Virus record (IMG/VR): IMGVR_UViG_3300046058_000043
Span: 1 to 53,521 of that record
From: a virus
Reading direction: 5' to 3' (one strand)
DNA: 53,521 nucleotides
Below are positions 12,690 to 32,407 of the stretch, one piece after another (position 1 is the stretch's first letter; each line of letters opens with the position of its first letter). The notes under the pieces were generated by a model that ran no database searches, was not told where the DNA came from, and worked only from the letters and a program-made list of their open reading frames with translations. The translations under genes and the position numbers were made by a program.

Positions 12690-12695
12690 CTACAG

Positions 12696-13643: not shown

Positions 13644-13656
13644 GGTGGTCTGAGAG

Positions 13657-14028
13657 ATGGCTACCACGAATGAGCAGGTCCGTCAGCGGTACGAAGCCGG
13701 CGGGCTACTCAACGACGGTGCGCCTCGAAACACGGTCACGGACGGCCCCGGCAACGGTGCCGAGACCGCCGTCGGCGAGGACACGGACGTCCACGTCGTC
13801 AACCCCGACGGGACGAACGCGGTCAACCTCGACGCAGCGGCGGAGGCCGGCCGCGAGGTCGCCATCGTCCACAACGGCGGCGCCAACACGCCGACGCTGT
13901 CGTTCGCCGATGCGGACTTCGTCGGGACGGGACCGGCAAACATCACCAGCGCGGGCGCCACGGCCACACTGGTTAACGTCGACGGCACGACCAGCGGCTG
14001 GGTCGTCAAGGCGACCGGGAGTGCCTGA
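13657..14028 (+). CDS. Head-associated hypothetical protein (possible decoration protein)
   Basis: 123 aa immediately after the capsid gene. Confidence 0.5.
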   Translation: MATTNEQVRQRYEAGGLLNDGAPRNTVTDGPGNGAETAVGEDTDVHVVNPDGTNAVNLDAAAEAGREVAIVHNGGANTPTLSFADADFVGTGPANITSAGATATLVNVDGTTSGWVVKATGSA

Positions 14029-14030
14029 TC

Positions 14031-14450
14031 ATGCCACGAGTACGCTACACCGCTGACAGCGGTCGGTACCGTATCACCGGGCAGACGTTCGAGCCGGGCG
14101 ACGTCCACGAGGTCAGCGCAGCACTGGCCGACCATCTCGTCGACGACGTCGGCGAGTTCGAGCGCGCCGACGATGCCGACGCCGGCGCCGGCGAGACCAA
14201 GCCAGCGTCTGCCGATGTTCACGAGGGGGATAGGCCGCTCGATGCGGACAAAGCCGACGACGCGAGCGGAGCTGATGATCTCGTCGCGACGCTGCAGGAC
14301 CAGACGATCCCCGAAATAGAAGACGACCTCGAGAGCGGCCGCTTCGATGATCGCCTCGATGAGCTCGCCCAAGCCGAATCTGAGGGCAAGGATCGCGCCG
14401 GGATCCACGACGCGATCGGTGTCCGCCGCGCGGAGATCGAGGAGGCCTAA
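14031..14450 (+). CDS. Acidic hypothetical head-module protein
   Basis: 139-aa ORF, tight spacing. Confidence 0.55.
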   Translation: MPRVRYTADSGRYRITGQTFEPGDVHEVSAALADHLVDDVGEFERADDADAGAGETKPASADVHEGDRPLDADKADDASGADDLVATLQDQTIPEIEDDLESGRFDDRLDELAQAESEGKDRAGIHDAIGVRRAEIEEA

Positions 14451-14453
14451 CCC

Positions 14454-14762
14454 ATGCCTGCGCGGGATGCCAGCACGGTGATCACAGACTCGAAGGCGTT
14501 CGGCGCACCCGAGACGGCCAGCGCCTTGATTGACGGCTACCACGCGCCGGCGATCTGCGTTGCGTTGGAGAGCCTCGAGGGCAACGCCGATGACACGCTG
14601 ACGATCGAAATCGTCGGCGCAGCTGGCTCCTACGAGGTCGACAGCCGAACGCTCTCGGCGACTGGGAGCTACGTCGTCGATGTTCCGCAAGCCGATGAGG
14701 TGCAGTTGACCAGCGCGAATGGCTCGACGATCAGCGCTGAAGCACGGAACAACCCGAGGTAA
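14454..14762 (+). CDS. Hypothetical head-module protein
   Basis: 102-aa ORF, tight spacing. Confidence 0.55.
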   Translation: MPARDASTVITDSKAFGAPETASALIDGYHAPAICVALESLEGNADDTLTIEIVGAAGSYEVDSRTLSATGSYVVDVPQADEVQLTSANGSTISAEARNNPR

Positions 14763-14768
14763 CCAGAG

Positions 14769-15518
14769 ATGCCCACCGGCTACTGCACCGTCGAGGACGT
14801 CCGCCGGGCGCTCCAGAAGACGATCGACAGCTTCGACAGCGGCGCCTGGGGCGCGGACGATCACCAGACGGTCGTCGACGCGATTACGAGTCAGACCGAA
14901 TGGCTTGAGAAGACGACAAAGCGCCACTGGTACGACCCCAACGGGATCACCGAGGACGACAAGGACCCAATCCCGACGTCAACGAAGTCGCGGAACGACG
15001 AGGAGTCGGTCACGACCGGCGGCGCCACTGTTGTCGGCGAACCGGTGACGCCGAAGACGTGGCACCAGGGCTACACCAAGATCCGGCTGGCCCGTCGGGA
15101 CGCCGGCGCCGTCGAGCAGCTACTGGTCGCTGGTGAGGATGGCTTCGAGGACTGGGTGGCCAGCGACGAGTACGCCGGCGGGCAGTTCCCTGCCGCCCTC
15201 GGCGACGACTACTACGTCCGGGTGAACAACGGCGGCTGGTCAGAGCTCTACCTGGACGCCGATCACTTCCTGGACGCAGACAGTGAGCCCATCCTGGACT
15301 CGTACAGCAACGCCGTGTACGTGACCTTCGAGTACGGCCATGAGGGCATCCCGAAGAACGTCCGGCGGGCGGTCGCGATGCGCGCCGGCGCGCAGCTGCT
15401 CGCGCCTGACGACGAGGCTGCGCTCGGGATTCCGGAGCAGTCGTCACTGCAGTCGGTCGAGACGAAGGTCCAAGCGCTCGAGCGACAGGCCGAAGAACTC
15501 CTGGAGGTCTATCTGTGA
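14769..15518 (+). CDS. Head-tail connector/adaptor (gp6-like N-terminus)
   Basis: MPTGYCTVEDVRRALQ resembles the yaTveDvk..l start of head-tail connector proteins; position. Confidence 0.55.
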   Translation: MPTGYCTVEDVRRALQKTIDSFDSGAWGADDHQTVVDAITSQTEWLEKTTKRHWYDPNGITEDDKDPIPTSTKSRNDEESVTTGGATVVGEPVTPKTWHQGYTKIRLARRDAGAVEQLLVAGEDGFEDWVASDEYAGGQFPAALGDDYYVRVNNGGWSELYLDADHFLDADSEPILDSYSNAVYVTFEYGHEGIPKNVRRAVAMRAGAQLLAPDDEAALGIPEQSSLQSVETKVQALERQAEELLEVYL

Positions 15519-15766
15519 GACCGGATCGCCCCTACCGCGCGCTGCGCGCTGGCGTCGGCGCTGCGGTGATCCTGGTGGTCGTCGGGCTGTGGGCCCACGG
15601 CCAGGCCACCGGCTCGCCGCTCGAGACGATCTGGCAGGTCGTGATGCTGGCGCTGGTGCTCGCCGCCGCCTACTCGGTGTTCGGGCAGCGGACGGTCGAG
15701 AACGCCGTCGAGACTGCACAGGAGCTCCAGGGTAGCGATACGGAGGGTGACGATGGTGACGCTTGA
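15515..15766 (+). CDS. Small membrane protein (GTG start)
   Basis: Two hydrophobic helices (GAAVILVVVGLWA, VVMLALVLAAAYSVF); GTGA overlap. Confidence 0.45.
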   Translation: MRPDRPYRALRAGVGAAVILVVVGLWAHGQATGSPLETIWQVVMLALVLAAAYSVFGQRTVENAVETAQELQGSDTEGDDGDA

Positions 15767-16220
15767 TTCGGACTTCGAGTCGAAGCTTCAGGAGGCCCTC
15801 CTCGACGGCGCCGAGCACGAGTTCGTCGGCAAACAAGGGAATCTCGTCCATCAGGCGATCCAGCAAGCTCATGAGATCCTTCGAGAGTACGGCTCTCGAT
15901 ACGACTACTCGATTGAGCCGATCATCGAGTCGCTGGGCCAGGTGGACATCGAACGCACCGACAACCGACTTCGGATCCGAGTCGGCTGGGACTATCCAGC
16001 AGCGCCGTTCTTCGAGCTGGGGACCAGTGACCACACCGTCGAGGGGAACCCGATCCTTTCGTTCGTGTGGGAGGATCCGCCGGCGTGGGTACGCGAGCAG
16101 TTCGATCGCGAGGGCGACGGCTGGCGCGTGTTCTTCCACGAGACCGAGCCTTCAGGCATCCCCGAGTCGCGGTTCGTGAGAGATGCGCTGAACTGGCTTC
16201 GGAGGGAGATACAGCGATGA
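15747..16220 (+). CDS. Head-tail joining protein (HK97 gp10-like, tentative)
   Basis: 157 aa, position; YPAAPFFELGTSDH region. Confidence 0.45.
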   Translation: MTMVTLDSDFESKLQEALLDGAEHEFVGKQGNLVHQAIQQAHEILREYGSRYDYSIEPIIESLGQVDIERTDNRLRIRVGWDYPAAPFFELGTSDHTVEGNPILSFVWEDPPAWVREQFDREGDGWRVFFHETEPSGIPESRFVRDALNWLRREIQR

Positions 16221-16384
16221 TCTGCGACGTTTGTGGCGACGATAAAGGCGTAGTGTACCGCTCCGGCTCTGTTTGTCGTCCGTGCCCCGGTTGTGGCCGT
16301 CCACGACCTGGCCGGAATCTCCCGACTGATCCTATCAGACCCGTCGAATCTCTGCTGCGTGCCTGTGCGAGGTTGAAAAGATGA
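16217..16384 (+). CDS. Mini zinc-ribbon protein (55 aa)
   Basis: MICDVCGDDKGVVYRSGSVCRPCPGCG; ATGA overlaps at both ends. Confidence 0.5.
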   Translation: MICDVCGDDKGVVYRSGSVCRPCPGCGRPRPGRNLPTDPIRPVESLLRACARLKR

Positions 16385-16866
16385 GCGCCGAAGTCGACTG
16401 GGTCCTAGAGCAGCTGGGCAGCGTCGTCGGTTCCACGACGGTACCGCTCAAGCGCGTCAACCGGGACGAGAGTGAAATCCTCGAGGACGACATCCGGAAG
16501 CGCAAGGGCGACCTCCAGCAGGCCAACTTCGTTGGCGCAACGCTCGCCGATCGCGACCCCGAACCGCTCGGGTTCGAGTACGATCACGAAGTTGAGACTG
16601 TGGTTGGCGTCCGGGTTGAGGGACTCCACGCGGCTGAGTGGGGGCACATCGACCCGGCCGGTGCCGACGGTATCCCATGGGATGAACTGGTCCGGCGAAT
16701 CAAGCGGGCGCTGCTCGCAGAGCGAACATACCCCGCTGTCGGCGCTCCGGACACGGACTACCATTCGCTGCTGATCACGAACGTGGCGCCGGACTCGGCG
16801 TCGTACCGCGACTACTACCGAACCGACTTCGACGTCGTCTTCCAGGGCGACGAAACGCTACCATGA
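16381..16866 (+). CDS. Tail completion/terminator-like protein (positional)
   Basis: 161 aa immediately upstream of the major tail protein. Confidence 0.45.
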   Translation: MSAEVDWVLEQLGSVVGSTTVPLKRVNRDESEILEDDIRKRKGDLQQANFVGATLADRDPEPLGFEYDHEVETVVGVRVEGLHAAEWGHIDPAGADGIPWDELVRRIKRALLAERTYPAVGAPDTDYHSLLITNVAPDSASYRDYYRTDFDVVFQGDETLP

Positions 16867-16897
16867 TCCGACACACTGACACGAACGGTGGTATCGC

Positions 16898-17857
16898 ATG
16901 ACCGGGGCCGGCACGACCAGCGTCGTCTGGACCCGCGAAGACAGCTACGGCACGCTCCCAACCGGCCCGACCTACGTCTATCCCGGCCGGGACGTTCAGG
17001 TGAGCAGTCTGGAGCTGCGGAACGCGCTCCAGCGCTCGCGACTCCCCGACGACAACGAGGCGATCGAGGCGGTCGCCCAGCAGCTTGAGGGTGCGTACGA
17101 GATCGAGTACGACCTCTGCCACCCCTGGGCGCTGACGGACGTCTTCGTCAGCGAACACACGGACAGCGACTCCGACGGCGTCCTCGAGTGGTCGATGGGC
17201 GCCGGCCAGATGCCGACGTCGCGCTGGTACATCGGCGTCGACGTCGGCTCGTCGACGTGCGAGCGCGAACTGAAGGGCGCGGCGACGACGTCACTGCAGG
17301 TCCAGATCTCCGATGGATCGAACGTCCGCGTTTCCCAGACGATCGTGTACGGCGACGAGGAGAAGAACTCGAGCATGACGCCAGGCTCGATCGAGGGGGG
17401 CGACCAGTCGCCGTACGTCTACCACGGCGGGAGCCTGACCGTTGACGGGACGACCCAGAAGAAGATGCAGGAGGCGACGCTGGAGATCACGAACAACGGC
17501 TCGCTCGACCGCGGTTGGAACCGGAAGGCGATCGACGCCGTCGCGGGCGACGCCGAGTACAACCTCTCGGCGTCGAAGATCGTCGACGACTCGCTGTCGA
17601 GCAACGTGACGCTGGCCTACGGCAACTCGACGGCGCCGGTCTCGACGTCGGGCATCGACGGCGTCTCTGGTGAACTCCCGCTGACGCGTGGCGACGGCGA
17701 TGAAATCACGCTCTCGCTGACGGGCGTCCGTCCGGATACGTACGGCTGGGACAACATCCCGCCGAGCGGTGACGAGCGCGTCCAGGAGTCGATCCAGTTC
17801 TTCGTCGACGTCGTCACCGCCGAGGCCGACGTCTCGATGGCCGACCCGTTCGCGTAA
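16898..17857 (+). CDS. Major tail protein (non-contractile tail)
   Basis: 319 aa, sits directly before the chaperone/tape-measure pair; no sheath-like gene present. Confidence 0.65.
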   Translation: MTGAGTTSVVWTREDSYGTLPTGPTYVYPGRDVQVSSLELRNALQRSRLPDDNEAIEAVAQQLEGAYEIEYDLCHPWALTDVFVSEHTDSDSDGVLEWSMGAGQMPTSRWYIGVDVGSSTCERELKGAATTSLQVQISDGSNVRVSQTIVYGDEEKNSSMTPGSIEGGDQSPYVYHGGSLTVDGTTQKKMQEATLEITNNGSLDRGWNRKAIDAVAGDAEYNLSASKIVDDSLSSNVTLAYGNSTAPVSTSGIDGVSGELPLTRGDGDEITLSLTGVRPDTYGWDNIPPSGDERVQESIQFFVDVVTAEADVSMADPFA

Positions 17858-20629: not shown

Positions 20630-21793
20630 ATGGACCAAGACCTCAAACTCTACACGCTGGTCGCGACCGGAGCAGGCCAAACAGATCGTGAGAACAATCT
20701 CCGCCAGCAGATCGCCTCTTCGGGGGTTCTCAATCAGGACGGCGGGAACATCGAACAGATCGCGAGTGAGCCCGCCGACCAGCAGATCCGCGGCCACTAC
20801 CGGGCACGCTACGCTGCGAAGATGGCGCAGGAACTCGAAGAACTCGCCTCCAGTGGGTTGGGCCCGCTCCCCGTCACGGCGCTGTCGGATAGTGTGTCGA
20901 CGGCACTGGATGGCTACTACGAGATAGAGTCCGCCGATATCGCCCCGCCCCGAGCAGCAACCGAGGCCGTCCAGCGCTACGACGTCTCACTCTCGAAAAA
21001 GGGCACCCGGAACAGCGCCTGGCGCGCACTCGAGACGAATCCCTCGCAGGTAGACCATGATGAGCAGTGGGGGAACGACACGACAGAGCTTGTCGGCATG
21101 CCGTCGACGGCGTCGAAAGTGCGCTGGTACCGCGACGAAACAAGCGCGGTCGCGCCGGCGTCGGCGACGTCGACGCGACAGGCTGAGCTCGGCGACGTCG
21201 AGATCTTCGACCTTGCGGACGGTCGGTCGGCGCTCTCGCTCTCGAGTGATCAGGATCTGTGGCTTATCTACGACATCGACTACGGCGCTGAGGAGACCGT
21301 CGACATCCGTGTCTGGGACACACGAGGCTACGACAGCAAACACGACAACGACGGCGGGCTGCAGTGGGCGAAGCTTTTCAATACGCAACACGACTTCGAC
21401 GACCTCGTCGTCCTGGACTCGGGTGTCCTCCGCCTCGAACTCGACGAGGCCGCCGGCACGATCACGGCCGAAACCTGGGAGTCGTCGACGTCGTCCTGGA
21501 CCTCCGTCGGGATGTCGAACGACTCGTCGTGGTCGCTGCTCGACGTCGACCTCACGCACGTGGGGATGGTCCGCGTCGACGCGCAGCTGACGTTTAGCGA
21601 TGGCTCCAGTCTCTACGCGCTCGACGCGATCCTCGGGCGCGGTGACGACTCGGTGCTGTTCGCGATCCCCGATGGCGAGTCCGCGCCGATCCCGTCGGGG
21701 ATCGTCGACTGGCTTGACCCGGTCGCTGCGTCGACGGTCTACGCGACGGCCGGGCAGAAGGACCTCATCGACCGACAGGAGGTGCGTCGATAG
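20630..21793 (+). CDS. Tail tip/baseplate-like protein (positional)
   Basis: 387 aa after the Dit-like gene. Confidence 0.5.
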   Translation: MDQDLKLYTLVATGAGQTDRENNLRQQIASSGVLNQDGGNIEQIASEPADQQIRGHYRARYAAKMAQELEELASSGLGPLPVTALSDSVSTALDGYYEIESADIAPPRAATEAVQRYDVSLSKKGTRNSAWRALETNPSQVDHDEQWGNDTTELVGMPSTASKVRWYRDETSAVAPASATSTRQAELGDVEIFDLADGRSALSLSSDQDLWLIYDIDYGAEETVDIRVWDTRGYDSKHDNDGGLQWAKLFNTQHDFDDLVVLDSGVLRLELDEAAGTITAETWESSTSSWTSVGMSNDSSWSLLDVDLTHVGMVRVDAQLTFSDGSSLYALDAILGRGDDSVLFAIPDGESAPIPSGIVDWLDPVAASTVYATAGQKDLIDRQEVRR

Positions 21794-24262
21794 ATGCCGA
21801 CTGAAAGCTGGTCCAGCGCAGGGAGTTACAGTTGGACTGTTCCGGACGGCGTCGAGAAAGTCACTATCCGCTGCTGGGGGGCCGGTGGCGGCTACACGAC
21901 GGATGCAGGCGGTGCTGGTGGGTACACCGAAGGCGATCTGTCCGTCTCCGGGGGCGACACGCTCGAAGTGTACGTCGGCGGCGGTGGCGGGTTCAAGACC
22001 AATGGCGGGTTCAACGGCGGTGGATCCGGCGGAGATAACGGGTCAAACGGCAGCGGCGGTGGGTCCGGAGGCGGGGCCAGCGACGTCCGATACAACAGCA
22101 CCGCGCTCGCCGACCGCGTCATCGTCGCCGGTGGTGGCGGCGGCCTCGGCGGCCACTCCTCTGGCAGTGGGTCGTACAACCCCGGCGGTGATGGTGGCGG
22201 CGACACCGGTCAGGACGGCGCAGAGTCGTTCGTCGGCGATGCAGGGCACGGCGGGACGCAATCTGGTGGCGGGGCCGGCGGGTCCGGCGGCGGGAACGAT
22301 GGTCAGGATGGGTCGTCCGGCTCCGGTGGTGCCGGCGGCGATCCCAAAAACGGATGGAGCGGTGGCGGCGGTGGCGGTGGGGGATACTACGGCGGCGGTG
22401 GCGGTGCCGGTCTGGACACCAGCGGCGGCGCTGGCGCTGGCGGCGGTGGATCGAGCTACACCGGTGGCGTCACGGCCGCCTCGACGACGGTCGGCGGGGG
22501 CGCTAACGCGACGGACGACGGACAGGTCGAGATCGAGTACTACTACGCCCCTGTTGCCCCGAGCAACGTCGACGCGACGGTCGTCGACGACGATCAGATC
22601 GACGTCGACTGGGACCACGACTCGAACAACGAGGACTACGACCTGCAGATGTCGCGTGACGGGTCGTCGTGGACGGAGCCGGCGGACTACGACATGTCCG
22701 TCTCGAACGGGACGGCGTCGGTTTACCCCAACTCCGACAACGACTATCACACTCAGGTCGGCATCGACTCGGGGTTCCAGTTCCGGGTCCGGGGGGTTAA
22801 CTCGCAGGGCGATACGTCGTCCTGGACGTCCAGCGACACGGTCTATACGACGCCGATTCCGCCGCATAACCCGGCTGTATCGCGTCCCGGTTCAGACACC
22901 TTCGAGGTGACGTGGACGCGGAAGTCCGACATCGGGAACTACAACCACGTCGAGGCGCGCAAGGACGACGGGAGCGGGTATGGGAGTTGGACGACGATTA
23001 ACACCCACTACCCGTCGCAGGGAGAACAGATCATGGTCACCTACGAGACCGGGCAGAGCTACGAGTTTGTCGACTCAGGGTACTTCGAGGAGGGCGCTCG
23101 TTACCAGTTCCGCATCGAGCGGACCGAGAACCGTGGCGACGAATACCGAGTCTCGGAATACGCGTACGCCGACTACGGCAACCGGGGGAATGTCTACTTC
23201 GAGGACGATTTCGAGTCCGGGGATCTGTCGAAATGGGACAACACGTACCTCGACACGTCCGAGTCCGGGGTAGTAACTGGCGGGATCGAAGATACGGCAA
23301 TCGACGGATCCGACAGCGGATCGTACTGCCTCAGGCTGGACGGCAACAGTACAGTGATGAAGGACCTCGGCGATATGAGCGGCGAATCAGGTGTGATCGT
23401 CCGCTGCGCGATGGCTATCGGGTCGATGGACACGAACCACGGCGACGACATTCGCATCGAATGGTACGACGGATCGACGTGGCAGACGATACACCAGATC
23501 AACAACATTCCCGACAACAACGACTACGAGGCATCGGCGTACAACAAGTCGGACTGGTTTGAGGTCCACGCTACCGTCCCCGACTCATACATGTCGTCGG
23601 ATGCCCGGGTGAGAATCACGGGGAACAACATGGGCGGCGCGGACCACCGAGGATACGACCGTATCGTCGTCAGCGACATCCTACACGAGCACACCCGGCC
23701 TGCCGCCCCATCAGACCTTGCGCTCGACGCCTCGACGGATCGCGAGATAACACTCTCGTGGACGAACAACGCTGCCTTCCCCTCGAAGCAGGAGACGAAG
23801 TTCAGGCCGACGGGCAGCGATACATGGGACCATCACGCCGATCTCCCTGCAGACCAGACAAGCGAGACTCGAGATGGGTTACTGGACGGCGAGCAATATG
23901 AGGCGTTTGCTCGGACCACCATCCAGCAATACCGTCGTGGGACTGGCGGCACGTACTTCTTTGACGACACGTCTACGAAAACGGCCATCACGAACCTCCC
24001 GCCGGTTGAGCTGGCGGTTGAGTCCGTCGACGGCCGTCACGCCACGATCTCGTGGACTGACCCCTCGAACAACGCCGACGGCTACCGGCTGCTGCTCCGC
24101 GAGGATGACAGCGGCAGCTACTCGCAGGACGGGAGCGACGTCGCACCGGTCGGCGAGGGGGAGACGCAGTCTACCCAGACGACCGAACTACTCGATGGGA
24201 TGCTCTACGGCACCACCGTTGAGACATACACTGAACACACCACTGCGAGGGAGGACCAATAA
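21794..24262 (+). CDS. Tail fibre protein: glycine-rich N-terminal domain plus several FN3-like modules and a jelly-roll-like segment
   Basis: SYSWTVPDGVEKVTIRCWGAGGGY...GGGGG tracts...GQVEIEY; repeated ...DWD/SWT...D..Y FN3-like units (APSNVDATVVDDDQIDVDWD, APSDLALDASTDREITLSWTN, LAVESVDGRHATISWTDP). Confidence 0.7.
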   Translation: MPTESWSSAGSYSWTVPDGVEKVTIRCWGAGGGYTTDAGGAGGYTEGDLSVSGGDTLEVYVGGGGGFKTNGGFNGGGSGGDNGSNGSGGGSGGGASDVRYNSTALADRVIVAGGGGGLGGHSSGSGSYNPGGDGGGDTGQDGAESFVGDAGHGGTQSGGGAGGSGGGNDGQDGSSGSGGAGGDPKNGWSGGGGGGGGYYGGGGGAGLDTSGGAGAGGGGSSYTGGVTAASTTVGGGANATDDGQVEIEYYYAPVAPSNVDATVVDDDQIDVDWDHDSNNEDYDLQMSRDGSSWTEPADYDMSVSNGTASVYPNSDNDYHTQVGIDSGFQFRVRGVNSQGDTSSWTSSDTVYTTPIPPHNPAVSRPGSDTFEVTWTRKSDIGNYNHVEARKDDGSGYGSWTTINTHYPSQGEQIMVTYETGQSYEFVDSGYFEEGARYQFRIERTENRGDEYRVSEYAYADYGNRGNVYFEDDFESGDLSKWDNTYLDTSESGVVTGGIEDTAIDGSDSGSYCLRLDGNSTVMKDLGDMSGESGVIVRCAMAIGSMDTNHGDDIRIEWYDGSTWQTIHQINNIPDNNDYEASAYNKSDWFEVHATVPDSYMSSDARVRITGNNMGGADHRGYDRIVVSDILHEHTRPAAPSDLALDASTDREITLSWTNNAAFPSKQETKFRPTGSDTWDHHADLPADQTSETRDGLLDGEQYEAFARTTIQQYRRGTGGTYFFDDTSTKTAITNLPPVELAVESVDGRHATISWTDPSNNADGYRLLLREDDSGSYSQDGSDVAPVGEGETQSTQTTELLDGMLYGTTVETYTEHTTAREDQ

Positions 24263-27024
24263 TGCCGGCTCAGTTCACTACCGATCTGCCCGCTGCGAGC
24301 GGCCTCCAGCTGGACGCCAGCGTCGAGGACGAACTCACCGCGACGTGGGACGACGTCCTCAACAACGGCGAGTTCCACCTGGAGTTGCGCGACGACGATC
24401 CCGATGGCAACCACCCAGACTACCAGGACGAGGCGACGGTCGGCGTAGGGACGACCTCGCACCAGATCACCGGGCTCCAGGACGGCGAGCAGTATTCGGT
24501 CCGGCTCCGAACGCAGACGGCCTACAAGACCGGCTCGTGGCTCGAGGCCGAGGACATCACGAAGTTTCCGGCCCCCGACAGTCTCACCGCGTCGACGTCG
24601 GCGACGTCGGTCTCGCTGGACTGGGCAGAGTACGCTGACAATGACTCCGGGAGCAAGATCTTCCGGGCGCGGGTATTCGACGGCAGTGTCGAGAGCTTCG
24701 AGCAGATCGGCACGACCGGGGCCGACGACACGACGGTCACCGACGACGGTGTGCTGCCGCAGCGAGAGTATCGCTATTACGTCCGCGAGCACACGGAGTG
24801 GGTCTACGCCGACACCGAAGAGATCAGCGCGACCGCGGACGCGACGGGCAAGCCGACGTCGCGGATCCCCGCATCGGGCTGGTACGTCGAGATCGACGCG
24901 GCCGACGGCTCCACCCATCGGCCGAGCGTCCTCGACGAAGCGCAGATCGTCCCGAAGGTCAATGGCCTGCCGCGCGTTCGCATCCCAGTCACAAAGTCGA
25001 CGAAGTGGCAGGCCGACGCGTTCGAGAAGGCTGCAGTGCGCGTCTGGCACGACGGCGAGCGCCAGCCGGCCGAGGTCCTTCTGGACGTCGAGCAGCAGCC
25101 CGGTCGGACGGTGCTGGTCGCCCGCGGCGGCGAGCAGCTCCGAGAGCGCGTCGAGGCCGAGTACGACTCGCGCCCCGTCCACGAGGTCGCCGAAGAGCTG
25201 GTCGCCAGCGAAACGTGCTACGCGACCAGCGTCGACACGCCAAGAGCGTCGAGGACCGAGGACGTCGTCCAGGACGTCACGACGGACGCCGACTGGGCAG
25301 GGATCACACAGACGACGGACCTAAGCACGCGTCCGGTCGACGTCGCCAACGGCTTGTCACTGTTGCAGTCGTGTTTCACAGCAGACGGCTACGATGGGGA
25401 CGAGGTTGCTGACGGGACCTTCAGCGAGGACATGGCCTACTCCGGCGACGGGAACACTGACGAGTACGGCGCCGCGCGGTGGCTCGACACCAGTGGCCAG
25501 GTCGCGGAGTGGACGTTCACGACCGGCTACGAGATCCCAGAAAGTCAGGTCGGCATCTGGATCCGTGCCGAGGCCCCTGGCAGTGCCACGCCCGAAACCA
25601 GGGTCTATCTCGACGGCAACCACCTGACAACGATCAACTATTCAGACTCGTTCGGTCGTCTCGGGCTCAGCTGGCGCGACTACGGCGACGACGGCGAGAG
25701 CTTTGTCTCGAACGGCTGGACGTACGGCGACCTCGCGGCGGGCGAGCACACGATCCGCGTCGAGATCACGCAGTCTGCAAGCGACCCGACGGTGATCGAC
25801 CACGTCGCGCTCGCAGACAATCGCTACGACATCACCTTGGACGAGGAGCCGACCTGGGTGTCGTCGACGTCGCGAAACGCGCTCGACGGGCCCGAACACT
25901 ATCCAATCGAGACGATCCGCTTCGACGTCTCCAACACTGTGTTGAGCGTGATCGGTGGCGACCTCACGACGTCGTTCGACAGCGTCGACGGCCAGCAGGC
26001 GGTCGGCATCACCAACGACGGCGACGACGCGCTGGTCACGGCGTCGAACACCGAGACCGTCTCGGCGGACTGGGCGTCGAGGACTGGCGAGATCCAGGCC
26101 GAGGCGACGCTCTCGCGCTGGCCGATCGGCCAGACCCCGCAGGGCCGGACGCCACGGTACGGCTACAACGGCCAGTCGGTGGACTCGCTGACGCTCACAG
26201 CACAACTGGACGATATGCCGCTGGTGCTCGACAGGCAGTTCGACGCGACGGTCGTCGACGTCCTCCGCGAACTGGCCGAGCAGCTGGGCGACAGCGTCTT
26301 CGCGTTCGAGATGGATGACAGCGGCGGCCGTCTCGAGTGGGCCGAGCGCGAGCAGCGGACCACGACCGTCGACGCATCGCTCGCGGACTTCAACGTCACG
26401 ACGACACGGGACCCGATCGAGCGGGCAATCGTCTACGGGAGCAACCAGTCCGTCCGCCGCGAGCAGATCACCGCCGAGCATGGGACGGCGGTCTCACTCC
26501 AGCACGAACGACTCCTGAAGGGATCGGTCGACGTCTATGACCCGGACACCCAGGAGACGTTCGACCGCGGAGCAGACTACGAGATCTCCCACCGCGACGG
26601 CACGATCACGGCGCTGGCCGGCGGCGACCTCGTCGACGGGGCGGCCTACCGCGTCGACTATGAGCACCAGACTCGGGGCGAGTTCGTCGCCGACGGCGTC
26701 GATCCCGCCGACGCGAACACGGAGGTCCGGGACATCACGGGGCTGACGACCGACCGGGCGTGCGGGCAGGCGGCGCTGCGGATCGTCGAGACGGGGCTGG
26801 AGCCGCATCACGAGGTCGAGGCGACGTGGCCGAGCGACGTTGATCTCCCGCCGGTCACGGACGCGCTGGTCGTCGACGGGCTACCGATCGACACGGCGGT
26901 CCAGACTCAGCAGATCGACGCTGGGCCGGCGGAGATCGTCACGACTGGTGGGTCTCGGCGGCCGGTCGAGGACGTCATCCGCGAGATCGACGAGCGGTTC
27001 TCGTCGATCTCGCGGCGGGTGTGA
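24262..27024 (+). CDS. Large tail fibre/spike protein with N-terminal FN3-like modules
   Basis: 920 aa; LQLDASVEDELTATWDD and LTASTSATSVSLDWAEY FN3-like units; last gene of the plus-strand structural block. Confidence 0.65.
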   Translation: MPAQFTTDLPAASGLQLDASVEDELTATWDDVLNNGEFHLELRDDDPDGNHPDYQDEATVGVGTTSHQITGLQDGEQYSVRLRTQTAYKTGSWLEAEDITKFPAPDSLTASTSATSVSLDWAEYADNDSGSKIFRARVFDGSVESFEQIGTTGADDTTVTDDGVLPQREYRYYVREHTEWVYADTEEISATADATGKPTSRIPASGWYVEIDAADGSTHRPSVLDEAQIVPKVNGLPRVRIPVTKSTKWQADAFEKAAVRVWHDGERQPAEVLLDVEQQPGRTVLVARGGEQLRERVEAEYDSRPVHEVAEELVASETCYATSVDTPRASRTEDVVQDVTTDADWAGITQTTDLSTRPVDVANGLSLLQSCFTADGYDGDEVADGTFSEDMAYSGDGNTDEYGAARWLDTSGQVAEWTFTTGYEIPESQVGIWIRAEAPGSATPETRVYLDGNHLTTINYSDSFGRLGLSWRDYGDDGESFVSNGWTYGDLAAGEHTIRVEITQSASDPTVIDHVALADNRYDITLDEEPTWVSSTSRNALDGPEHYPIETIRFDVSNTVLSVIGGDLTTSFDSVDGQQAVGITNDGDDALVTASNTETVSADWASRTGEIQAEATLSRWPIGQTPQGRTPRYGYNGQSVDSLTLTAQLDDMPLVLDRQFDATVVDVLRELAEQLGDSVFAFEMDDSGGRLEWAEREQRTTTVDASLADFNVTTTRDPIERAIVYGSNQSVRREQITAEHGTAVSLQHERLLKGSVDVYDPDTQETFDRGADYEISHRDGTITALAGGDLVDGAAYRVDYEHQTRGEFVADGVDPADANTEVRDITGLTTDRACGQAALRIVETGLEPHHEVEATWPSDVDLPPVTDALVVDGLPIDTAVQTQQIDAGPAEIVTTGGSRRPVEDVIREIDERFSSISRRV

Positions 27025-27030
27025 TCTCAG

Positions 27031-27768
27031 CTACTGCTGTACAGTGATTCGGCGCTTGTAATCCGCAACCCGATCACCGTTCTGATGTGCGCTGACTTCC
27101 CACTCTGCAGCGTTGCCTGCCGATAGCCGGCTAACACCGTCCTTTCGCCAGTAGACGAGCTCGTCCCCGTCGTAGAAGTTGATGTGGATGTACACTCGAG
27201 ACAGTTCGTCGTCAGTCTCATTCTCGAGAGTCCCAGAGACGACAGGTGGTTCCTGGCCCTGATCAAACTGTTCTGCGGTGATCGTTACCTCTCCGTCATT
27301 CTGGGGCGTTAGAGACTCGAGACGCACGGTCGTATCGACGGCAACGCGCGTGATTCGGTCTGGATCGTCGACAGCTGCTGGAATGTGGACCTGTGCAAAT
27401 TCGCCTGGACCGAGATACCGAGGCATCGTCCAGCGGCTTCCAAGCTGAACGTCTCCGTCGTAGAAATCAACTGCGACTCTAGCACTTGCGATCTCTTCCC
27501 CACGCGTATTTTCAACGACTCCGACAGCTGCAGGGGACTCCGTCCTCGGGTCATATCCCCACTGGAACTCGCGAAATTCTACACCTCTATCCGAGAACGC
27601 GTCAAGTACGTCCCCTCGGTTGAAGAACAACGGCTGGTCGTCGTTCTCTTTCTGGTTGGGATCACTGGCGTCTGAACTGGTCGGTTCGCTCGTAGAGCTG
27701 AGGCAACCGGCGAAGGCGGCACTGCCGGTGATCCCGAGGAACTCTCGACGCCCGAGTTGATCAGCCAT
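27031..27768 (-). CDS. Tat-signal lipoprotein with two FxLYD-type domains (paralog A)
   Basis: MADQLGRREFLGITGSAAFAGC (twin-Arg + lipobox Cys); VAVDFYDGDVQLG and IHINFYDGDELVY. Start trimmed from the 27975 ORF. Confidence 0.75.
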   Translation of the reverse strand: MADQLGRREFLGITGSAAFAGCLSSTSEPTSSDASDPNQKENDDQPLFFNRGDVLDAFSDRGVEFREFQWGYDPRTESPAAVGVVENTRGEEIASARVAVDFYDGDVQLGSRWTMPRYLGPGEFAQVHIPAAVDDPDRITRVAVDTTVRLESLTPQNDGEVTITAEQFDQGQEPPVVSGTLENETDDELSRVYIHINFYDGDELVYWRKDGVSRLSAGNAAEWEVSAHQNGDRVADYKRRITVQQ

Positions 27769-27823
27769 GCCCGTAACTAATCGTAACGATATGATAAGTG
27801 ATAGGCCGATTCTCCTCACGCCG

Positions 27824-28564
27824 TCATTGAGCGTGGAGGATAATCTCGTGATCGGCCGCTTGCCCCTCAACGTCTGGCGGTGTTCGGATGAGCGAGCTGG
27901 CTTCGAAGCGCCACCGAGCATTCGCTGACAGACTGTCGCGGCTATCGAATGTGGTGCCCCGCAGTCTCCCGGCATCGTCGTATACCTGAGCGATCACGTA
28001 CAACGTCCCCTCAACACCAGTTTCGCCAGTACTGATTTCTCCGGTTACGGTTACACCAGACTCTGGTTCGGCTACCATCTCGCTCTTGACGACGTCGGCG
28101 GTCGCTGGCGGGTTAGTAATCGCGCGTCGGTCCGCCTCAAGGATGTCTGCCTCGATGTTCTGAACGATGTCGCGGCCTTCGTCCAAGTCCCGTCCTTTTG
28201 TGAATCGCTGGTAGTGGCGCCAGGTCGTCTCCCCCGGAAGTAGCTCGACGCTGCCCCGGCGCGTATCCATCAGCTCGTCGGCGTCGTCGTAGAAGCGCAG
28301 CTGGAGATCCAGCCGACCGTGATCGACCTCAGTTGTGTTCTCGACGTCGACATACGCCCAAGGGACTTGGCCACTCTCCGAAGCGGTGACCGACGCGCCG
28401 TCGATCAGGGTGGTGCTGGTGATCTCGACAGAAGCCCTGGGTGTGGTCTCCGGTTCGTCGTTGCTGCTCTCGTCTCGGGTATTGTCCGTTGTTCCATAGC
28501 AGCCAGTGAGGGCCGTGATGCTGGCGGCACCGATGAACGTCCGCCGCGAGAGTTGTTCGGTCAT
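27824..28564 (-). CDS. Tat-signal lipoprotein with two FxLYD-type domains (paralog B)
   Basis: MTEQLSRRTFIGAASITALTGC; LQLRFYDDADELM and VIAQVYDDAGRLR. Confidence 0.75.
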   Translation of the reverse strand: MTEQLSRRTFIGAASITALTGCYGTTDNTRDESSNDEPETTPRASVEITSTTLIDGASVTASESGQVPWAYVDVENTTEVDHGRLDLQLRFYDDADELMDTRRGSVELLPGETTWRHYQRFTKGRDLDEGRDIVQNIEADILEADRRAITNPPATADVVKSEMVAEPESGVTVTGEISTGETGVEGTLYVIAQVYDDAGRLRGTTFDSRDSLSANARWRFEASSLIRTPPDVEGQAADHEIILHAQ

Positions 28565-28607
28565 GCTTGCAACTAACAGGTTATATTTTGAAAAGCAATT
28601 CTACTCT

Positions 28608-28632
28608 AAAACCCGGTGTCGCACCGGGGTTT
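28608..28632 (-). terminator. Hairpin plus T-run between 28642 gene and 28564 gene
   Basis: Minus strand reads aaaccccggtg-cga-caccgggtttt, then a TATA-like aaatata about 25 nt before ATG 28564. Confidence 0.5.
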
Positions 28633-28641
28633 AACTGACGG

Positions 28642-29094
28642 TCAGGAAACTAACTCCACGACGTCTGAGGGGGTCGTGACGGAGATCTGCCCATCGAGAT
28701 CGCCGACGAACGCCTCTGCATCATCAGCTGCTGACGACGGGACGACTAGGACTCGTTTGTAGCCCTGGAGTCGGAACTCTTCGAGTTGTTCCTCTGCGTC
28801 GCTGTCCAGACTGTCGCTGGTCTCGACCTCCACGATGAGATTCGGCGACCCGGGAGGGCTCTGAACGACGTGATCTGGGATCGAGTTGATCCCGAGATCA
28901 AGCCCTCGAGTGTTCCCCGCAGCGCTGTCTGAGTAGTGGTGGTGGTCGACGTAGACGCTCGTCGATTCTCCAGCCGACTGCTGGAGCTGCTTGTGCGTCT
29001 TCTTTACGAGGCCGTCGTGTCCCTTCGGGCCTGAGAGAACTTTCCAACCGATCGCTGCAACCGCTGCTGCGCCTGCAATTGCTGGCAGTGCCAT
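28642..29094 (-). CDS. Membrane-anchored protein with PD-(D/E)xK/VRR-NUC-like core lacking the Lys
   Basis: N-terminal MALPAIAGAAAVAAIGWKVL helix; ...NSIPDHVV-x12-LIVEVETSD...EEQLEEFRLQGYKRVLVVP. Confidence 0.45.
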   Translation of the reverse strand: MALPAIAGAAAVAAIGWKVLSGPKGHDGLVKKTHKQLQQSAGESTSVYVDHHHYSDSAAGNTRGLDLGINSIPDHVVQSPPGSPNLIVEVETSDSLDSDAEEQLEEFRLQGYKRVLVVPSSAADDAEAFVGDLDGQISVTTPSDVVELVS

Positions 29095-29195
29095 ATTTGA
29101 TCACGTCTCCTGTTATGTTTCGTGGGAGACATTCGAACAAGTTGTTACAGGAACATAAATTTCTAGCATGGGTATGGCAAGTATCTTGGTCGCAA

Positions 29196-29603
29196 CTATG
29201 CGACCAGAGAGCTGTTGTTCTCGCCGCTCTCGCGAACAGGAATGTCGACTTCCAGATCATCGTAGGGGACAACCGGGCGCTTCGCCCGTCCGTCCGTCTC
29301 GATCTCGACGACGCCGATCTCGGCGAGGAAGTTCAGATCCTCACTGACGTTCTTGATGTCGCGCTCGACGAGCCGGGCGGTCTCGCGCATACTGTCTGGT
29401 TCGTACTCGGCCACCGTTTGGAGCAGTTCGAGGTTCGTCTTGCTCAGGACGCGGCTCAGCGTTGCGAGGTCGGGGACGCTCAGGACGTCGACGTCGACGT
29501 CGGCACCGTCGTCGATCGCTGAGGCGTCCTCCTTGACCTGCTCGAAGAACTCGTCGGTCGTCTCGATCTGGATGTGGAGAGTGTCGCTCATGTGGTGTGG
29601 CAC
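29196..29603 (-). CDS. HVO_A0114-family-like HTH protein (TumA-like antitoxin candidate)
   Basis: LSRVLSKTNLELLQTVAEYEPDSMRETARLVERDIKNVSEDLNFLAEIGVVEIETDGRAKRPVVPYDDLEVDIPV matches my memory of that family. Confidence 0.65.
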   Translation of the reverse strand: MPHHMSDTLHIQIETTDEFFEQVKEDASAIDDGADVDVDVLSVPDLATLSRVLSKTNLELLQTVAEYEPDSMRETARLVERDIKNVSEDLNFLAEIGVVEIETDGRAKRPVVPYDDLEVDIPVRESGENNSSLVA

Positions 29604-29624
29604 CTCGGTTTGGTTGGCACCCGC

Positions 29625-29912
29625 TTACAGCCGATCGTCGATATCTGCCTCGAAGCGCTCGACGAGTGCTTCGACGCCGGGAAACTCGATGTGTTCGACC
29701 GTGTCGCCCTCGTGCCGTTCGTGGACGCCGTGGGAGTTGTCGTAGCGAACGAGCGTCTCGCCGTCGATCGTCCCGAAGTGAAGCCGGTACTTGACGCCCT
29801 CGGGGAATTTCTCCGATTCGGGAACGCGCATGATTTTCACGCGGATCACGTAGTCGCCGTCGACGCGGCGATAGTTGGCTTCGACGTCGACTTCATCGTC
29901 GGTGGGTGCCAT
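29625..29912 (-). CDS. TumE-like (DUF6516-like) toxin candidate
   Basis: VIRVKIMRVPESEKFPEGVKYRLHFGTIDGETLVRYDNSHGVHERHEGD...FPGVEALVERF. Confidence 0.6.
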   Translation of the reverse strand: MAPTDDEVDVEANYRRVDGDYVIRVKIMRVPESEKFPEGVKYRLHFGTIDGETLVRYDNSHGVHERHEGDTVEHIEFPGVEALVERFEADIDDRL

Positions 29913-30085
29913 CCCTGTTTGTTGGTAGAGACGCCATCATAATAAGGGTGTTGGTGTTGTTACCATCAACTGAATTCCTCGTACGCGCACGTTTCTTGAA
30001 GAATAGAAAGAACTCCCCCGGGGTGACGGAATCGTGTGGTAGAGCGGGGAAAGCCTTACAATATCGGCGGGTTACGGGTTTCTAT

Positions 30086-30412
30086 ATGGAATATCAGAAG
30101 CAGGAGAATATCGCGGATGTGCTGTTCGCAGTTTCCGTCGCACTTGGCGTGATGGCTGTTCTTGGTGTGCCTGCCCTCGAGGCGATTCGTACCGTTGTCT
30201 GGGCGGTGGTCGCGGCGATCGAGCCGACGCTGGCGGATGCGCTTGCAGCAGTCCTCGCGATCCACGTTCCGGAGCTGGTCCCTCGCGGCGTCGACGCGAT
30301 CGTGACCGTTGCGCCGGTCCTCGGGGAGAGGGGCGGTGCGCCGGTTGGAATCGTTGGGGCAGCTGGAGTCAGCCTCCTGTACTGGCGCCGGCGTTCGGGC
30401 CCATCTGAGTAG
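30086..30412 (+). CDS. Multi-pass membrane protein
   Basis: ATG 30086 in ORF 29906..30412; three hydrophobic segments. Confidence 0.5.
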   Translation: MEYQKQENIADVLFAVSVALGVMAVLGVPALEAIRTVVWAVVAAIEPTLADALAAVLAIHVPELVPRGVDAIVTVAPVLGERGGAPVGIVGAAGVSLLYWRRRSGPSE

Positions 30413-30548
30413 ATAACAGATTTAATCCCGCAATCTGACACTATTTCGGCGTAGAACGCGTCTCGACGCCGATGAGTGGCGTCTGGACGGTTGCTCGGGC
30501 GGCGTTTCCCCCGGGTTCGAGCCGCCCAAATCGGTGTTCAACCCCGTC

Positions 30549-30563
30549 GTTTCCGCTGGAAAC
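30549..30563. repeat. Dyad GTTTCC-gct-GGAAAC (origin-recognition-box-like half sites, tentative)
   Basis: Perfect 6+3+6 palindrome in a gene-free stretch; a 7-bp-stem hairpin gggcggc/gccgccc lies at 30497-30527. Confidence 0.3.
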
Positions 30564-30611
30564 TGACAGCAGAGCGGTAGATAAACCGAATATCGCTTGG
30601 TGAACTTCGCC

Positions 30612-30974
30612 ATGAGTCCCAACTCCGAGCAGCGCGAGCGTATCAAATCTCGACGGGAGGCGCGTAAACGGTACTGGTCGGCCCACGACCGAGACAGCTA
30701 CCAGTGTCCCGGCTGCGGCGCAGGTGACGTCCTGATCGAGGTGCATCATCGAAATGGCGACCCGTTCGACAACCGTCTAAAGAACCTCGTCGGCCTCTGT
30801 CACGAGTGCCACGTCCGCCGGCATCGGCGCCGGAACATCGACGATCGTCTCGCAGCGATGCGCGATGCCGTCGACGAGCTGGGCGCTGGTAGGAATGCGG
30901 CAAGCCAGACTGAGCAGAATGTTGTTCTAACTCTAAAAAGTGAAAATGCGGTTCGTACGGCTACAGCACGATAG
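30612..30974 (+). CDS. HNH endonuclease (third copy)
   Basis: YQCPGCG...IEVHHRNGDPFDNRLKNLVGLCHECHVRRH. Confidence 0.8.
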   Translation: MSPNSEQRERIKSRREARKRYWSAHDRDSYQCPGCGAGDVLIEVHHRNGDPFDNRLKNLVGLCHECHVRRHRRRNIDDRLAAMRDAVDELGAGRNAASQTEQNVVLTLKSENAVRTATAR

Positions 30975-31121: not shown

Positions 31122-31541
31122 CTATCCCCAGTCGTAGCCCCACTCGCGCAGTTGGTCGCCGACCTCGTCGAGATGTGCAAACCCGACGAGCAGCGCAGCC
31201 TCGCGCAGGTCGGCTTTCTTCACCGACTCGCCGAGCGCGCTCTCGACGTCCGCACGTGCTTCGCGCTGCTGCTCCAGCGTCGAATCCTGGAGGTGCAGCT
31301 GTACGGTCTTCGCTCGCCCGTCCGTAATGCTATCTCGGTCGTAGATCCAGGGTAGCCCAGTGGCCGCCGGCGTCTCGCTCTCCTCGTCACCGTCCCGCTG
31401 CTCGGTCGCGTCGAGATCGGACTCACGCCCCGTCCTGATCGACGAGGACGTCGACTCCGCCTCGGTCTCGTCCGGGTCACCACCGCCGTCGCCCCCACCG
31501 AGCGGATCGTCGCTGCTGGCACCGCTCTTGAACCCGGTCAT
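31122..31541 (-). CDS. ParA-partner protein (centromere-binding candidate)
   Basis: 139-aa acidic protein, ATGA-coupled downstream of parA. Confidence 0.5.
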   Translation of the reverse strand: MTGFKSGASSDDPLGGGDGGGDPDETEAESTSSSIRTGRESDLDATEQRDGDEESETPAATGLPWIYDRDSITDGRAKTVQLHLQDSTLEQQREARADVESALGESVKKADLREAALLVGFAHLDEVGDQLREWGYDWG

Positions 31542-32407
31542 GCTTCCACCTCGAGCGCACCGGGCTCCGGCGGGTTCGGCGCTTCGATCCTGACTTGCTC
31601 CTCGAGATAGCGGGCGAGTCGATCGAACTGGGCGAGCGTTTCGACCTCGTAGTCACGACGCCGGCTACGGTGTTCCTGGACGTAACGGAACGCCGAGCAC
31701 TGCTGCTTCCAGCAGCCCTCCATCAGTGCCGTCCGATCGCCGATCACCTCGGGCGTTGGGAACGCGATCTCCTCGATCATCTCCTGCTGGTCGGACGTGT
31801 TCTTCACGCCGTTCGGGACCGCACCCAGCACGCCGACGTCGATGTTCAGCTGGTCGGCGAAGTTCGTCGCGAGTTCCTCGAGGCCATGGACTGCTGCCTC
31901 GCCCTTCGCCGACGGTTCGACGGGGAGGACGAGGTTCCGCGTCGCGTAGATCGCGTTGTACAGGTGGTCGGACTCGGTCGCCGGCGGGTCACAGATCAGG
32001 ACGTCGTACTCATCGGCGACGCCCGCCTCCTGGAGGACGCGCTGGAGCTGCGCGTAGATGTTGTACGCATCGCCGAGATCCTCGGCTTTGCTCTGTTCGC
32101 GTGCGAGGTGGGTCGACAGGTCCGACAGCATGTTGTGTTCCGGGACGATGTCGACGCCCTCTGCAGAGCGGAGCAGGTCCTCAAACGGACCGCGCGGGCT
32201 CTGGACCATGTGCCGGACGAGGTTGTCCGCGTCGCCGTCGGCCCGATCGTCGTCGACGCCGAGCAGTCGACTGAGGTCGCCGTCCTGCGGGTCGAGCGGG
32301 ACGACCAGGACGTCGAGCCCGGCGCGAGCGTGCGCGATGCCGAGGTTCGCTGTCAGCGACGTCTTCCCGACCCCGCCGGCTTCGGAGTAGACCGTGTACG
32401 AGAGCAT
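31538..32407 (-). CDS. parA: ParA/Soj-type partition ATPase
   Basis: YSEAGGVGKTSLTANLG deviant Walker A, VLVVPLDPQ, LICDPP. Confidence 0.9.
   Translation of the reverse strand: MLSYTVYSEAGGVGKTSLTANLGIAHARAGLDVLVVPLDPQDGDLSRLLGVDDDRADGDADNLVRHMVQSPRGPFEDLLRSAEGVDIVPEHNMLSDLSTHLAREQSKAEDLGDAYNIYAQLQRVLQEAGVADEYDVLICDPPATESDHLYNAIYATRNLVLPVEPSAKGEAAVHGLEELATNFADQLNIDVGVLGAVPNGVKNTSDQQEMIEEIAFPTPEVIGDRTALMEGCWKQQCSAFRYVQEHRSRRRDYEVETLAQFDRLARYLEEQVRIEAPNPPEPGALEVEA

Follow-up and report, generated by a model that had tools for sequence, protein, structure and literature searches.

Predicted Tat-type FxLYD lipoproteins beside the distal tail genes of a haloarchaeal tailed virus: candidate surface accessory proteins in a recently exchanged block

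What might a pair of lipoprotein genes do directly behind the tail genes of a haloarchaeal virus? The question is raised by the IMG/VR record IMGVR_UViG_3300046058_000043 (positions 1 to 53,521; this whole stretch of 53,521 nucleotides is called the window in the following), which represents the genome of a haloarchaeal tailed virus in complete or nearly complete form. Its plus strand carries the genes for terminase, portal, prohead protease, HK97-type capsid protein and tail tube, and after these come two genes for large distal tail proteins (21794..24262 and 24262..27024). Right after the last of them, the coding strand flips, as had been claimed in an initial annotation made from the letters alone: the open reading frames of three genes, here termed A, B and C, lie on the minus strand. 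A indeed stands next to the distal tail genes in opposite orientation, since it converges on the gene for the 920-aa tail protein, which ends at 27024, leaving a gap of 6 nucleotides to the end of A at 27031. A and B are predicted to be accessory (“moron”) surface lipoproteins at the end of the tail module, and they probably alter the surface of the infected cell, perhaps blocking other viruses. The best explanation of the locus as a whole, to which we assign a probability of roughly 0.4, is that A and B are separately captured morons whose products would be exported by the twin-arginine translocation (Tat) pathway, reside as lipoproteins on the cell surface and protect the cell or the viral progeny. 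The genes that matter for this argument are the following:

27031..27768, minus strand: gene A, predicted 245-aa Tat-type lipoprotein with two FxLYD domains (open reading frame, NF038353, RR motif and lipobox)
27824..28564, minus strand: gene B, predicted 246-aa Tat-type lipoprotein with two FxLYD domains, a distant paralogue of A (open reading frame, NF038353)
28642..29094, minus strand: gene C, 150-aa protein with a hydrophobic, Gly/Ala-rich N-terminus and a PD...ExE...Q core (family conservation)
24262..27024, plus strand: 920-aa distal tail protein, last gene of the structural module, converging on A (phrog_18315)
21794..24262, plus strand: 822-aa glycine-rich tail protein with ALK/LTK glycine-rich and fn3 domains (PF12810, PF00041)

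The N-termini of the two proteins, MADQLGRREFLGITGSAAFAGC in A and MTEQLSRRTFIGAASITALTGC in B, both contain a twin-arginine motif of the RR-x-F-(L/I) type (GRREFLG in A, SRRTFIG in B), behind which lie a stretch of 18 uncharged residues and then a lipobox that contains Cys22. The start of A was taken as Met70 of a longer open reading frame (Met at 27768), and the JGI gene call has the same 245-aa product. The lipobox of B, LTGC, is canonical with respect to the pattern [LVI][ASTVI][GAS]C; that of A, FAGC, has a Phe at position -3, which is a tolerated variant, and the homologues have AGC or SGC. An acidic, Ser/Thr-rich linker follows the lipobox in both proteins. Because the motif is present and is also conserved in six homologues, A and B are predicted to carry Tat signals. 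Furthermore, both match the NCBIfam model NF038353 (FxLYD_dom) in two stretches each (A: 3e-19, 68.7 bits; B: 1.7e-13, 50.2 bits), and since these scores lie far above the curated cut-off of 23 bits, the FxLYD domains are real and not chance matches. The motifs and NF038353 thereby confirm the architecture that had been proposed for each protein, i.e., a twin-arginine motif, a lipobox and two FxLYD modules. A and B share 24% identity (E = 1e-5), a weak but significant paralogy. Neither protein has a Pfam, PHROG or PADLOC match; the sole hint for the FxLYD domains in Pfam is DUF2393 (E = 0.17), and a comparison of the FxLYD profile with PDB sequences gave only chance matches to FtsZ. The family had been described as uncharacterised, in line with a full-text literature search, which returns the string FxLYD in an unrelated sense only.

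An AlphaFold2 model of A (mean pLDDT 68) is disordered in residues 1-46 and contains two six-stranded β-sandwich domains (strands 63-149 and 161-244) at pLDDT 70-88. Foldseek searches with this model gave generic tandem Ig-like matches only and no functional lead: transglutaminase C-terminal barrels, WxLIP, the C-terminal domain of AglB, arrestin, and uncharacterised or carbohydrate-binding phage proteins. The model has no enzyme-like feature, and no enzyme-like protein was found among the Foldseek matches.

The spaces around A and B contain signals that might set their transcription apart from that of their neighbors:

28608..28632, minus strand: hairpin with a 7-bp G+C-rich stem and a 3-nt loop, plus TTTT (stem present in both the minimum-free-energy and the centroid fold)
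28581..28594, minus strand: AT-rich box TTTTCAAAATATAA, -30 to -17 from the ATG of B, candidate archaeal TATA box (by eye)
27789..27798, minus strand: AT-rich box CTTATCATAT, -30 to -21 from the ATG of A, candidate TATA box (by eye)
26979..27015, no strand assigned: perfect 16-bp inverted repeat with a 5-nt loop (inverted-repeat search)

The hairpin, CCCGGTG-CGA-CACCGGG (28628..28612), follows the stop codon of C and is itself followed by TTTT, as seen by eye. It is likely a terminator that separates C from B, and a scan for bacterial-type terminators did not pick it up. The AT-rich boxes before A and B are consistent with leaderless haloarchaeal transcripts. Thus, the hairpin with T-run that had been claimed before is found between C and B, and A and B each have a promoter-like box of their own. 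The inverted repeat lies within the last 45 nucleotides of the gene for the 920-aa tail protein, 16 nucleotides past the stop codon of A, and may serve as a bidirectional terminator for the converging transcripts while also being coding sequence.

Where could A and B have come from? The closest relative of A, and the only one from the genome scan, is encoded on the chromosome of Halostagnicola sp. A56 (45% identity), and the closest relatives of B are found on haloarchaeal megaplasmids (25-33% identity). Among the latter, a plasmid gene of Natrinema zhouii, 33% identical to B, is interrupted by an IS5 element; a relative in Natrinema salifodinae sits in a region that resembles a mobile element. 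Further single FxLYD genes are present on Natronomonas pharaonis PL131, Halobacterium salinarum pHSAL2 and Halalkalicoccus jeotgali plasmid 1. All complete homologues (Halostagnicola, Natronomonas, Halobacterium, a metagenome) keep both the lipobox and the RR motif; the records of N. salifodinae and N. zhouii contain N-terminally truncated proteins, and the H. jeotgali annotation starts inside the signal peptide. The homologues that were scanned match FxLYD_dom, with the Natronomonas copy just below the cut-off (22 versus 23 bits). A and B thus resemble the cellular haloarchaeal members in Tat motif, lipobox, acidic linker and number of domains, but differ from them in being carried by a virus, beside its distal tail genes. 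Since each of the two is closer to a cellular gene than A is to B, they are separate captures or the products of an old duplication rather than of a recent tandem duplication. The GC content at third codon positions (GC3), 0.61-0.70 in A, B and C versus 0.79-0.92 in the large structural genes, suggests a foreign origin. Word-indexed homologue searches gave three matches each for A and C, a search with the FxLYD domain profile returned only an already known protein (P0003), scans of IMG/VR with A or B alone or with alignments of the A and C families retrieved the same virus only, and a metagenome scan with the A family found no match.

The connection of A and B to the tail genes emerges from a comparison with a second virus, IMGVR_UViG_3300046057_000055, over its first 21 kb. 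Only 9.2 kb of the window align with it, at about 98.5% DNA identity (blastn), and these include the following features:

21386..30561, no strand assigned: mosaic block with both distal tail genes, A, B, C and the TumE pair (blastn)
29196..29912, minus strand: putative toxin-antitoxin pair upstream of C (PF25212, PF20126)

Within the block, both distal tail proteins, A, B, C, an HVO_A0114-type protein and TumE are 97-100% identical, and A, B, C and TumE differ by 0-1 nucleotides each. Divergence reaches 5-6% at both block edges, and the proteins that flank the block (two tail-module proteins and ParA) are 36%, 58% and 27% identical. Since the block is near-identical and its flanks are divergent, the accessory genes and the host-recognition end of the tail took part in a recent exchange as a single segment. 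Single-nucleotide differences are concentrated at both edges as well as in the intervals 22.3-23.2 kb and 25.0-25.9 kb. SNP-dense patches between variants of the virus also fall in the gene for the 822-aa tail protein, which matches PF12810 at its N-terminus (5e-21), followed by fn3 (PF00041, 8e-13). The 920-aa protein matches phrog_18315 from end to end (4e-187). Just outside the right block boundary at 30561, a small HNH endonuclease gene (30597-30974) was noted from sub-threshold Pfam matches.

The closest relative, the virus contig L006, differs from the window both in the tail and in the slot behind it. Its homologue of the 920-aa protein is 70-85% identical in residues 1-320 and 55-78% in the C-terminal third, but only 20-35% in residues 321-560, so that the central domain is swapped. 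The slot behind this tail gene (11698-16972) encodes other exported proteins than in the window, namely a 369-aa lipoprotein with RR motif and AGC, a 192-aa Tat-type secreted protein and a 346-aa lipoprotein. Tail and lipoproteins may co-vary, to judge from two lineages, the window block and L006; eight further relatives lack FxLYD genes. By eye only, the C-terminal half of the 346-aa lipoprotein resembles gp43 of HJTV-4 (L014, 7726-8217), whose gene is located directly behind the last tail gene of HJTV-4.

FxLYD proteins are not confined to this virus. VOLN27_93 of Halorubrum virus VOLN27B (Hafunaviridae; L032, 4857-5207) is a protein of 116 aa with the motif KRREFLKK, the lipobox TAGC and a single FxLYD domain (5.8e-20). 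Its homologues in Hardygib1 and in HRTV-10, 18, 19, 20, 22, 23 and 26 show 90-92% conservation, so that at least nine cultured Hafunaviridae myoviruses carry the gene in all; it is annotated as hypothetical. HF1 and HF2 are not among the matches, and the gene therefore looks like an accessory gene within the genus. Like A and B, VOLN27_93 combines a Tat motif, a lipobox and an FxLYD domain in a protein of a haloarchaeal tailed virus. Unlike them, it has a single domain and only 116 aa, stands in a replication-gene setting and belongs to a myovirus (Haloferacalesvirus) from a family unrelated to the siphovirus of the window; its similarity to A is local only (32% identity over 59 residues). A third occurrence is phi49 of the Clostridioides difficile phage phiSemix9P1 (L033, 4695-5213), a protein composed of zinc ribbon, transmembrane helix and FxLYD domain (9.5e-24). 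As in other bacterial members of the family, zinc ribbon and transmembrane helix take the place of the lipid anchor. The phi49 gene sits in an accessory region of a temperate, RepB-carrying phage, beside a gene for a signal-peptide protein, regulators and a CRISPR array. Searches with phi49 (tblastn) also matched Latilactobacillus prophage proteins with the annotation “putative superinfection immunity protein” and a lysogeny-module protein of Aeromonas LPM4. These matches are confined to the zinc-ribbon, transmembrane and linker part, and because the matched proteins lack an FxLYD domain, they were not counted as support.

How could such proteins act? In the preferred explanation, A and B would each have been captured from the haloarchaeal accessory gene pool. 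Each would have an AT-rich promoter of its own, and their transcription would run counter to that of the late structural genes. Following the established haloarchaeal Tat-lipoprotein pathway, the proteins would be exported in folded form, their signal peptides would be cleaved before Cys22, and this residue would be lipid-modified. They would then be anchored on the outer face of the membrane, beneath the S-layer, where two Ig-like FxLYD β-sandwich domains might be displayed on an acidic, Ser/Thr-rich stalk. In this position, A and B might shield the infected or carrier cell from superinfection, or progeny virions from re-adsorption, by masking or binding an envelope component that is recognized by the co-inherited distal tail proteins. 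Superinfection exclusion by A and B is a plausible hypothesis, to which the joint transfer with the tail genes and the presence of FxLYD lipoproteins in unrelated haloarchaeal viruses lend indirect support. That the FxLYD ectodomains bind or shield precisely the envelope component used by these tail proteins, and so exclude superinfecting virions or protect progeny, is a more specific proposal, which we regard as somewhat unlikely.

A parallel can be drawn to Llp of phage T5, Cor of phi80 and N15, and Ltp of the Streptococcus phage TP-J34, which are superinfection-exclusion lipoproteins of phages. The llp gene adjoins the receptor-binding gene of T5, and Llp masks the receptor FhuA. Like Llp, Cor and Ltp, A and B are virus-encoded and are predicted to be lipid-anchored and exposed at the cell surface; to judge from the promoter-like boxes, they may also share with them a transcription separate from that of the late structural genes. 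The adjacency to, and co-inheritance with, host-recognition genes recalls llp of T5 in particular. However, there is no relationship in sequence or fold, so that the resemblance is one of logic and position; moreover, A and B would act on an archaeal host with an S-layer envelope, after Tat rather than Sec export, and there are two genes with two Ig-like domains each. It is doubtful that FxLYD lipoproteins represent the first archaeal counterpart of Llp/Cor-type receptor masking. If so, the FxLYD domain would be a membrane-tethered Ig-like module that viruses of archaea (the siphovirus of the window, Hafunaviridae) and of bacteria (phiSemix9P1) alike place on the surface of infected cells, where it would prevent identical or competing viruses from adsorbing or entering; in the lineage of the window virus, the lipoprotein genes would be swapped together with the receptor-binding part of the tail.

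Several observations weigh against a protective role of A and B at the cell surface. The Tat signals were not reported by the NCBIfam Tat-signal model TIGR01409 for either protein at E ≤ 0.1, and the AlphaFold2 model of A was built on three sequences only. Nothing similar to A or B was found among PHROG, PADLOC or known superinfection-exclusion proteins, a tblastn search with A and B against 50,697 phage records gave no match, and the full-text literature search yielded no functional datum for any FxLYD protein. Most relatives of A and B are single cellular genes, located on megaplasmids or in islands near IS elements. In the Hafunaviridae, the FxLYD gene lies among replication genes, by a Rad3-type helicase gene, and not by fibre genes. 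The linkage to the tail genes in the window may be no more than physical, given that C and the toxin-antitoxin pair reside in the same block. Finally, recurrence of FxLYD pairs beside the tail genes of related viruses and proviruses had been proposed as a check, and the outcome is negative: none of eight BJ1/Humcor1/HJTV-4-like relatives with a homologous last tail gene (HJTV-4, Humcor1, four IMG/VR proviruses and two metagenome contigs) has an FxLYD gene behind it. Five of the eight have an unrelated, conserved protein of about 190-220 aa with one transmembrane helix somewhere downstream of the last tail gene (L015, 7921-8586; L019, 13381-14034; L020, 12921-13586; L021, 13286-13846; L022, 15534-16130), which might function as a holin or in exclusion; in L022, its gene is separated from the last tail gene by others. 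One of the eight, L030, encodes a different membrane protein, of 143 aa, downstream of the last tail gene.

Gene C requires separate consideration. Its family comprises proteins of about 150 aa (67 representatives at 50% clustering), and conservation was computed on the 56 of these that were aligned. D74 is invariant among them, and H26, P73, E89, V90, Q103, L104, L116 and P119 are conserved to at least 90%. C itself contains P73-D74, E89-V90-E91, Q103-x3-F107 and G111-Y-K-R-V-L-V-V, i.e., the order PD, x11-LIVEVE, a helix with Q-x3-F and a strand GYKRVLVV. This order resembles the PD...EV.S...G..Y core of Uma2, and also other PD-(D/E)xK families; D74 and E89 are conserved, and the canonical Lys position is taken by Glu91, which makes C an ExE variant. 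Apart from Glu91, the hydrophobic N-terminal helix sets C apart from PD-(D/E)xK, Uma2 and VRR-NUC proteins, to which its matches stay below threshold. C against Uma2 (PF05685) gives E = 0.046 and 13.7 bits, with a cut-off of 27; the C-family profile has no significant match in the PDB (VRR-NUC chain 4qbn, E = 1.7), and other family members show sporadic sub-threshold matches to other restriction-enzyme families. The AlphaFold model of C (pLDDT 40) is too poor to test the fold; its secondary-structure order, α-β-β-α-β-α-β-α, includes a long unassigned stretch that might hold one more strand and would agree with a PD-(D/E)xK fold. Hence, of the nuclease resemblance that had been suggested for C, the PD...EVE...Q-x3-F...GYKRVLVV core is present, but significant support from profiles or PDB structures was not obtained. 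With a KD17 of 1.76, the hydrophobic, Gly/Ala-rich N-terminus is a borderline candidate for a membrane span, and some family members give Gly-zipper matches. Given the basic residues after the N-terminal helix, the positive-inside rule would place the domain of C in the cytoplasm. It is possible that C is a membrane-tethered protein with a restriction-endonuclease-like motif.

The initial annotation had combined A, B and C into a single cassette. This does not hold: a C homologue with 87% identity is encoded on L006, with homologous tail genes and no FxLYD gene, another with 56% identity follows right after ParA/DUF8160 genes in L008, again with no FxLYD gene, and in cellular replicons the A and B homologues are solitary genes. 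C is an independent gene and an unrelated neighbor of A and B. In L008 (7685-9550), the C-family member lies directly downstream of the genes for ParA and a DUF8160 protein, in the same orientation, and in the window (31122-32407) and in L001, the C-family gene is found further down the same strand from ParA; the position of C next to ParA in L008 and on the same strand elsewhere raises the possibility of a link to a partition or maintenance module.

The main rival to the preferred explanation holds that A and B are passenger or lysogenic-conversion genes, whose products would be ordinary haloarchaeal envelope lipoproteins (for adhesion, envelope stability or ligand binding) and would be beneficial to the host or neutral; the genes would have been acquired from megaplasmids of the host. 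We consider this quite possible, if short of an even chance. The same architecture, at 230-260 aa, is encoded on Natronomonas PL131, Halobacterium pHSAL2, Halalkalicoccus plasmid 1, the N. zhouii plasmid and the Halostagnicola chromosome, and these cellular loci have no viral neighbors; the GC3 of A, B and C is below that of the viral core genes, and related siphoviruses do without A and B. What speaks for a viral function instead is that FxLYD envelope proteins occur in two unrelated haloarchaeal virus lineages and in one bacterial phage, that the gene is 90-92% identical across nine cultured myovirus isolates, and that A and B have 0-1 substitution inside a freshly exchanged block of tail genes. 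The nine Hafunaviridae isolates with the FxLYD gene are presumably virulent; since Hafunaviridae are propagated lytically, a conversion gene of benefit to the host fits them poorly.

Instead of protecting cell or progeny, A and B might act in egress or lysis, or in an envelope stage of virion maturation, by loosening or anchoring the S-layer during release or by serving as a decoy that prevents progeny from binding to cell debris. The slot would suit such a role, in that phage genes for lysis and other envelope-acting functions often come after the tail genes and the BJ1-like relatives have a small, perhaps holin-like, transmembrane protein in the same slot; likewise, the Hafunaviridae copy is surrounded by genes of the lytic programme. 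However, the model of A contains no enzymatic domain and has no enzyme-like Foldseek match, A and B run counter to the late operon and have separate promoter-like boxes, and the block yielded neither a holin nor an endolysin partner, which makes this role improbable. Still less can be said for a single cell-surface system formed by A, B and C, i.e., two lipoproteins and a membrane-tethered PD-(D/E)xK nuclease. The three genes are adjacent, co-oriented and co-transferred in the mosaic block, and C contributes its conserved PD...ExE...Q motif, its borderline-hydrophobic N-terminus and, in some family members, the Gly-zipper matches. But C has its own terminator hairpin and B its own promoter-like box, the domain of C is predicted to be cytoplasmic and not on the surface, and its nuclease match is not significant. 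Above all, the close C homologues occur without an FxLYD gene and the FxLYD homologues without C; this lack of co-occurrence largely refutes a joint system, which is highly improbable.

To our knowledge, nothing has been reported on mutual exclusion of haloarchaeal tailed viruses at the cell surface, and a literature search found no archaeal virus-encoded exclusion lipoprotein described, in agreement with the earlier statement that no described archaeal equivalent is known. If A and B, or their Hafunaviridae homologue, block adsorption or entry, this would be the first function for the FxLYD domain, and A and B would point to envelope receptors of haloarchaeal tailed viruses. The idea of exclusion is directly testable, because the Hafunaviridae copy is present in cultured virus-host pairs (VOLN27B with Halorubrum sp. 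LN27; Hardygib1 with Haloferax gibbonsii). Virus-borne surface-lipoprotein morons are of an already known kind, and A and B are members of an established family; what is new here is the viral association of the FxLYD family in two haloarchaeal virus lineages and the mosaic block of tail and lipoprotein genes. Even if A and B are plain passengers, the locus remains a clean case of a recent exchange of a tail and accessory block between divergent archaeal viruses. In Haloferax volcanii, mutations in host Tat lipoproteins accompany resistance to the pleolipovirus HFPV-1 (bioRxiv 10.1101/2024.09.12.612678), which places lipoproteins at the interface between haloarchaeal viruses and their hosts.

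The remaining genes of the block and of the window provide the context of the locus. Upstream of C, the HVO_A0114-type helix-turn-helix protein (29196..29603; PF25212, 9e-29, 99.5 bits, cut-off 27.6) and the TumE toxin (29625..29912; PF20126, 4e-13, 49.5 bits, cut-off 23.4), a member of a family described by Durairaj et al., 2023 (PMC10584680), form a putative separate addiction or defence module. Both belong to an accessory region of lower GC content, from about 27 to 37 kb, which is mostly encoded on the minus strand and includes the gene for ParA; a search of the window for tRNA genes and integration signals found none. Over its full length, the 920-aa tail protein shares 29-31% identity with proteins of HJTV-4, BJ1, Humcor1 and CGphi46, which identifies the virus as a distant BJ1/Humcor1-like siphovirus. 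The Logan contig L004 matches the window from 21882 to 30971 at 100% identity, and the same region is also present on two JGI/IMG-VR contigs; DNA-level searches of the locus against phage and plasmid collections gave no match. Elsewhere in the window (5611-6861 and 9001-10905), a fusion protein of ParB_N and a DNA methylase and a portal protein with a C-terminal KTSC domain were observed.

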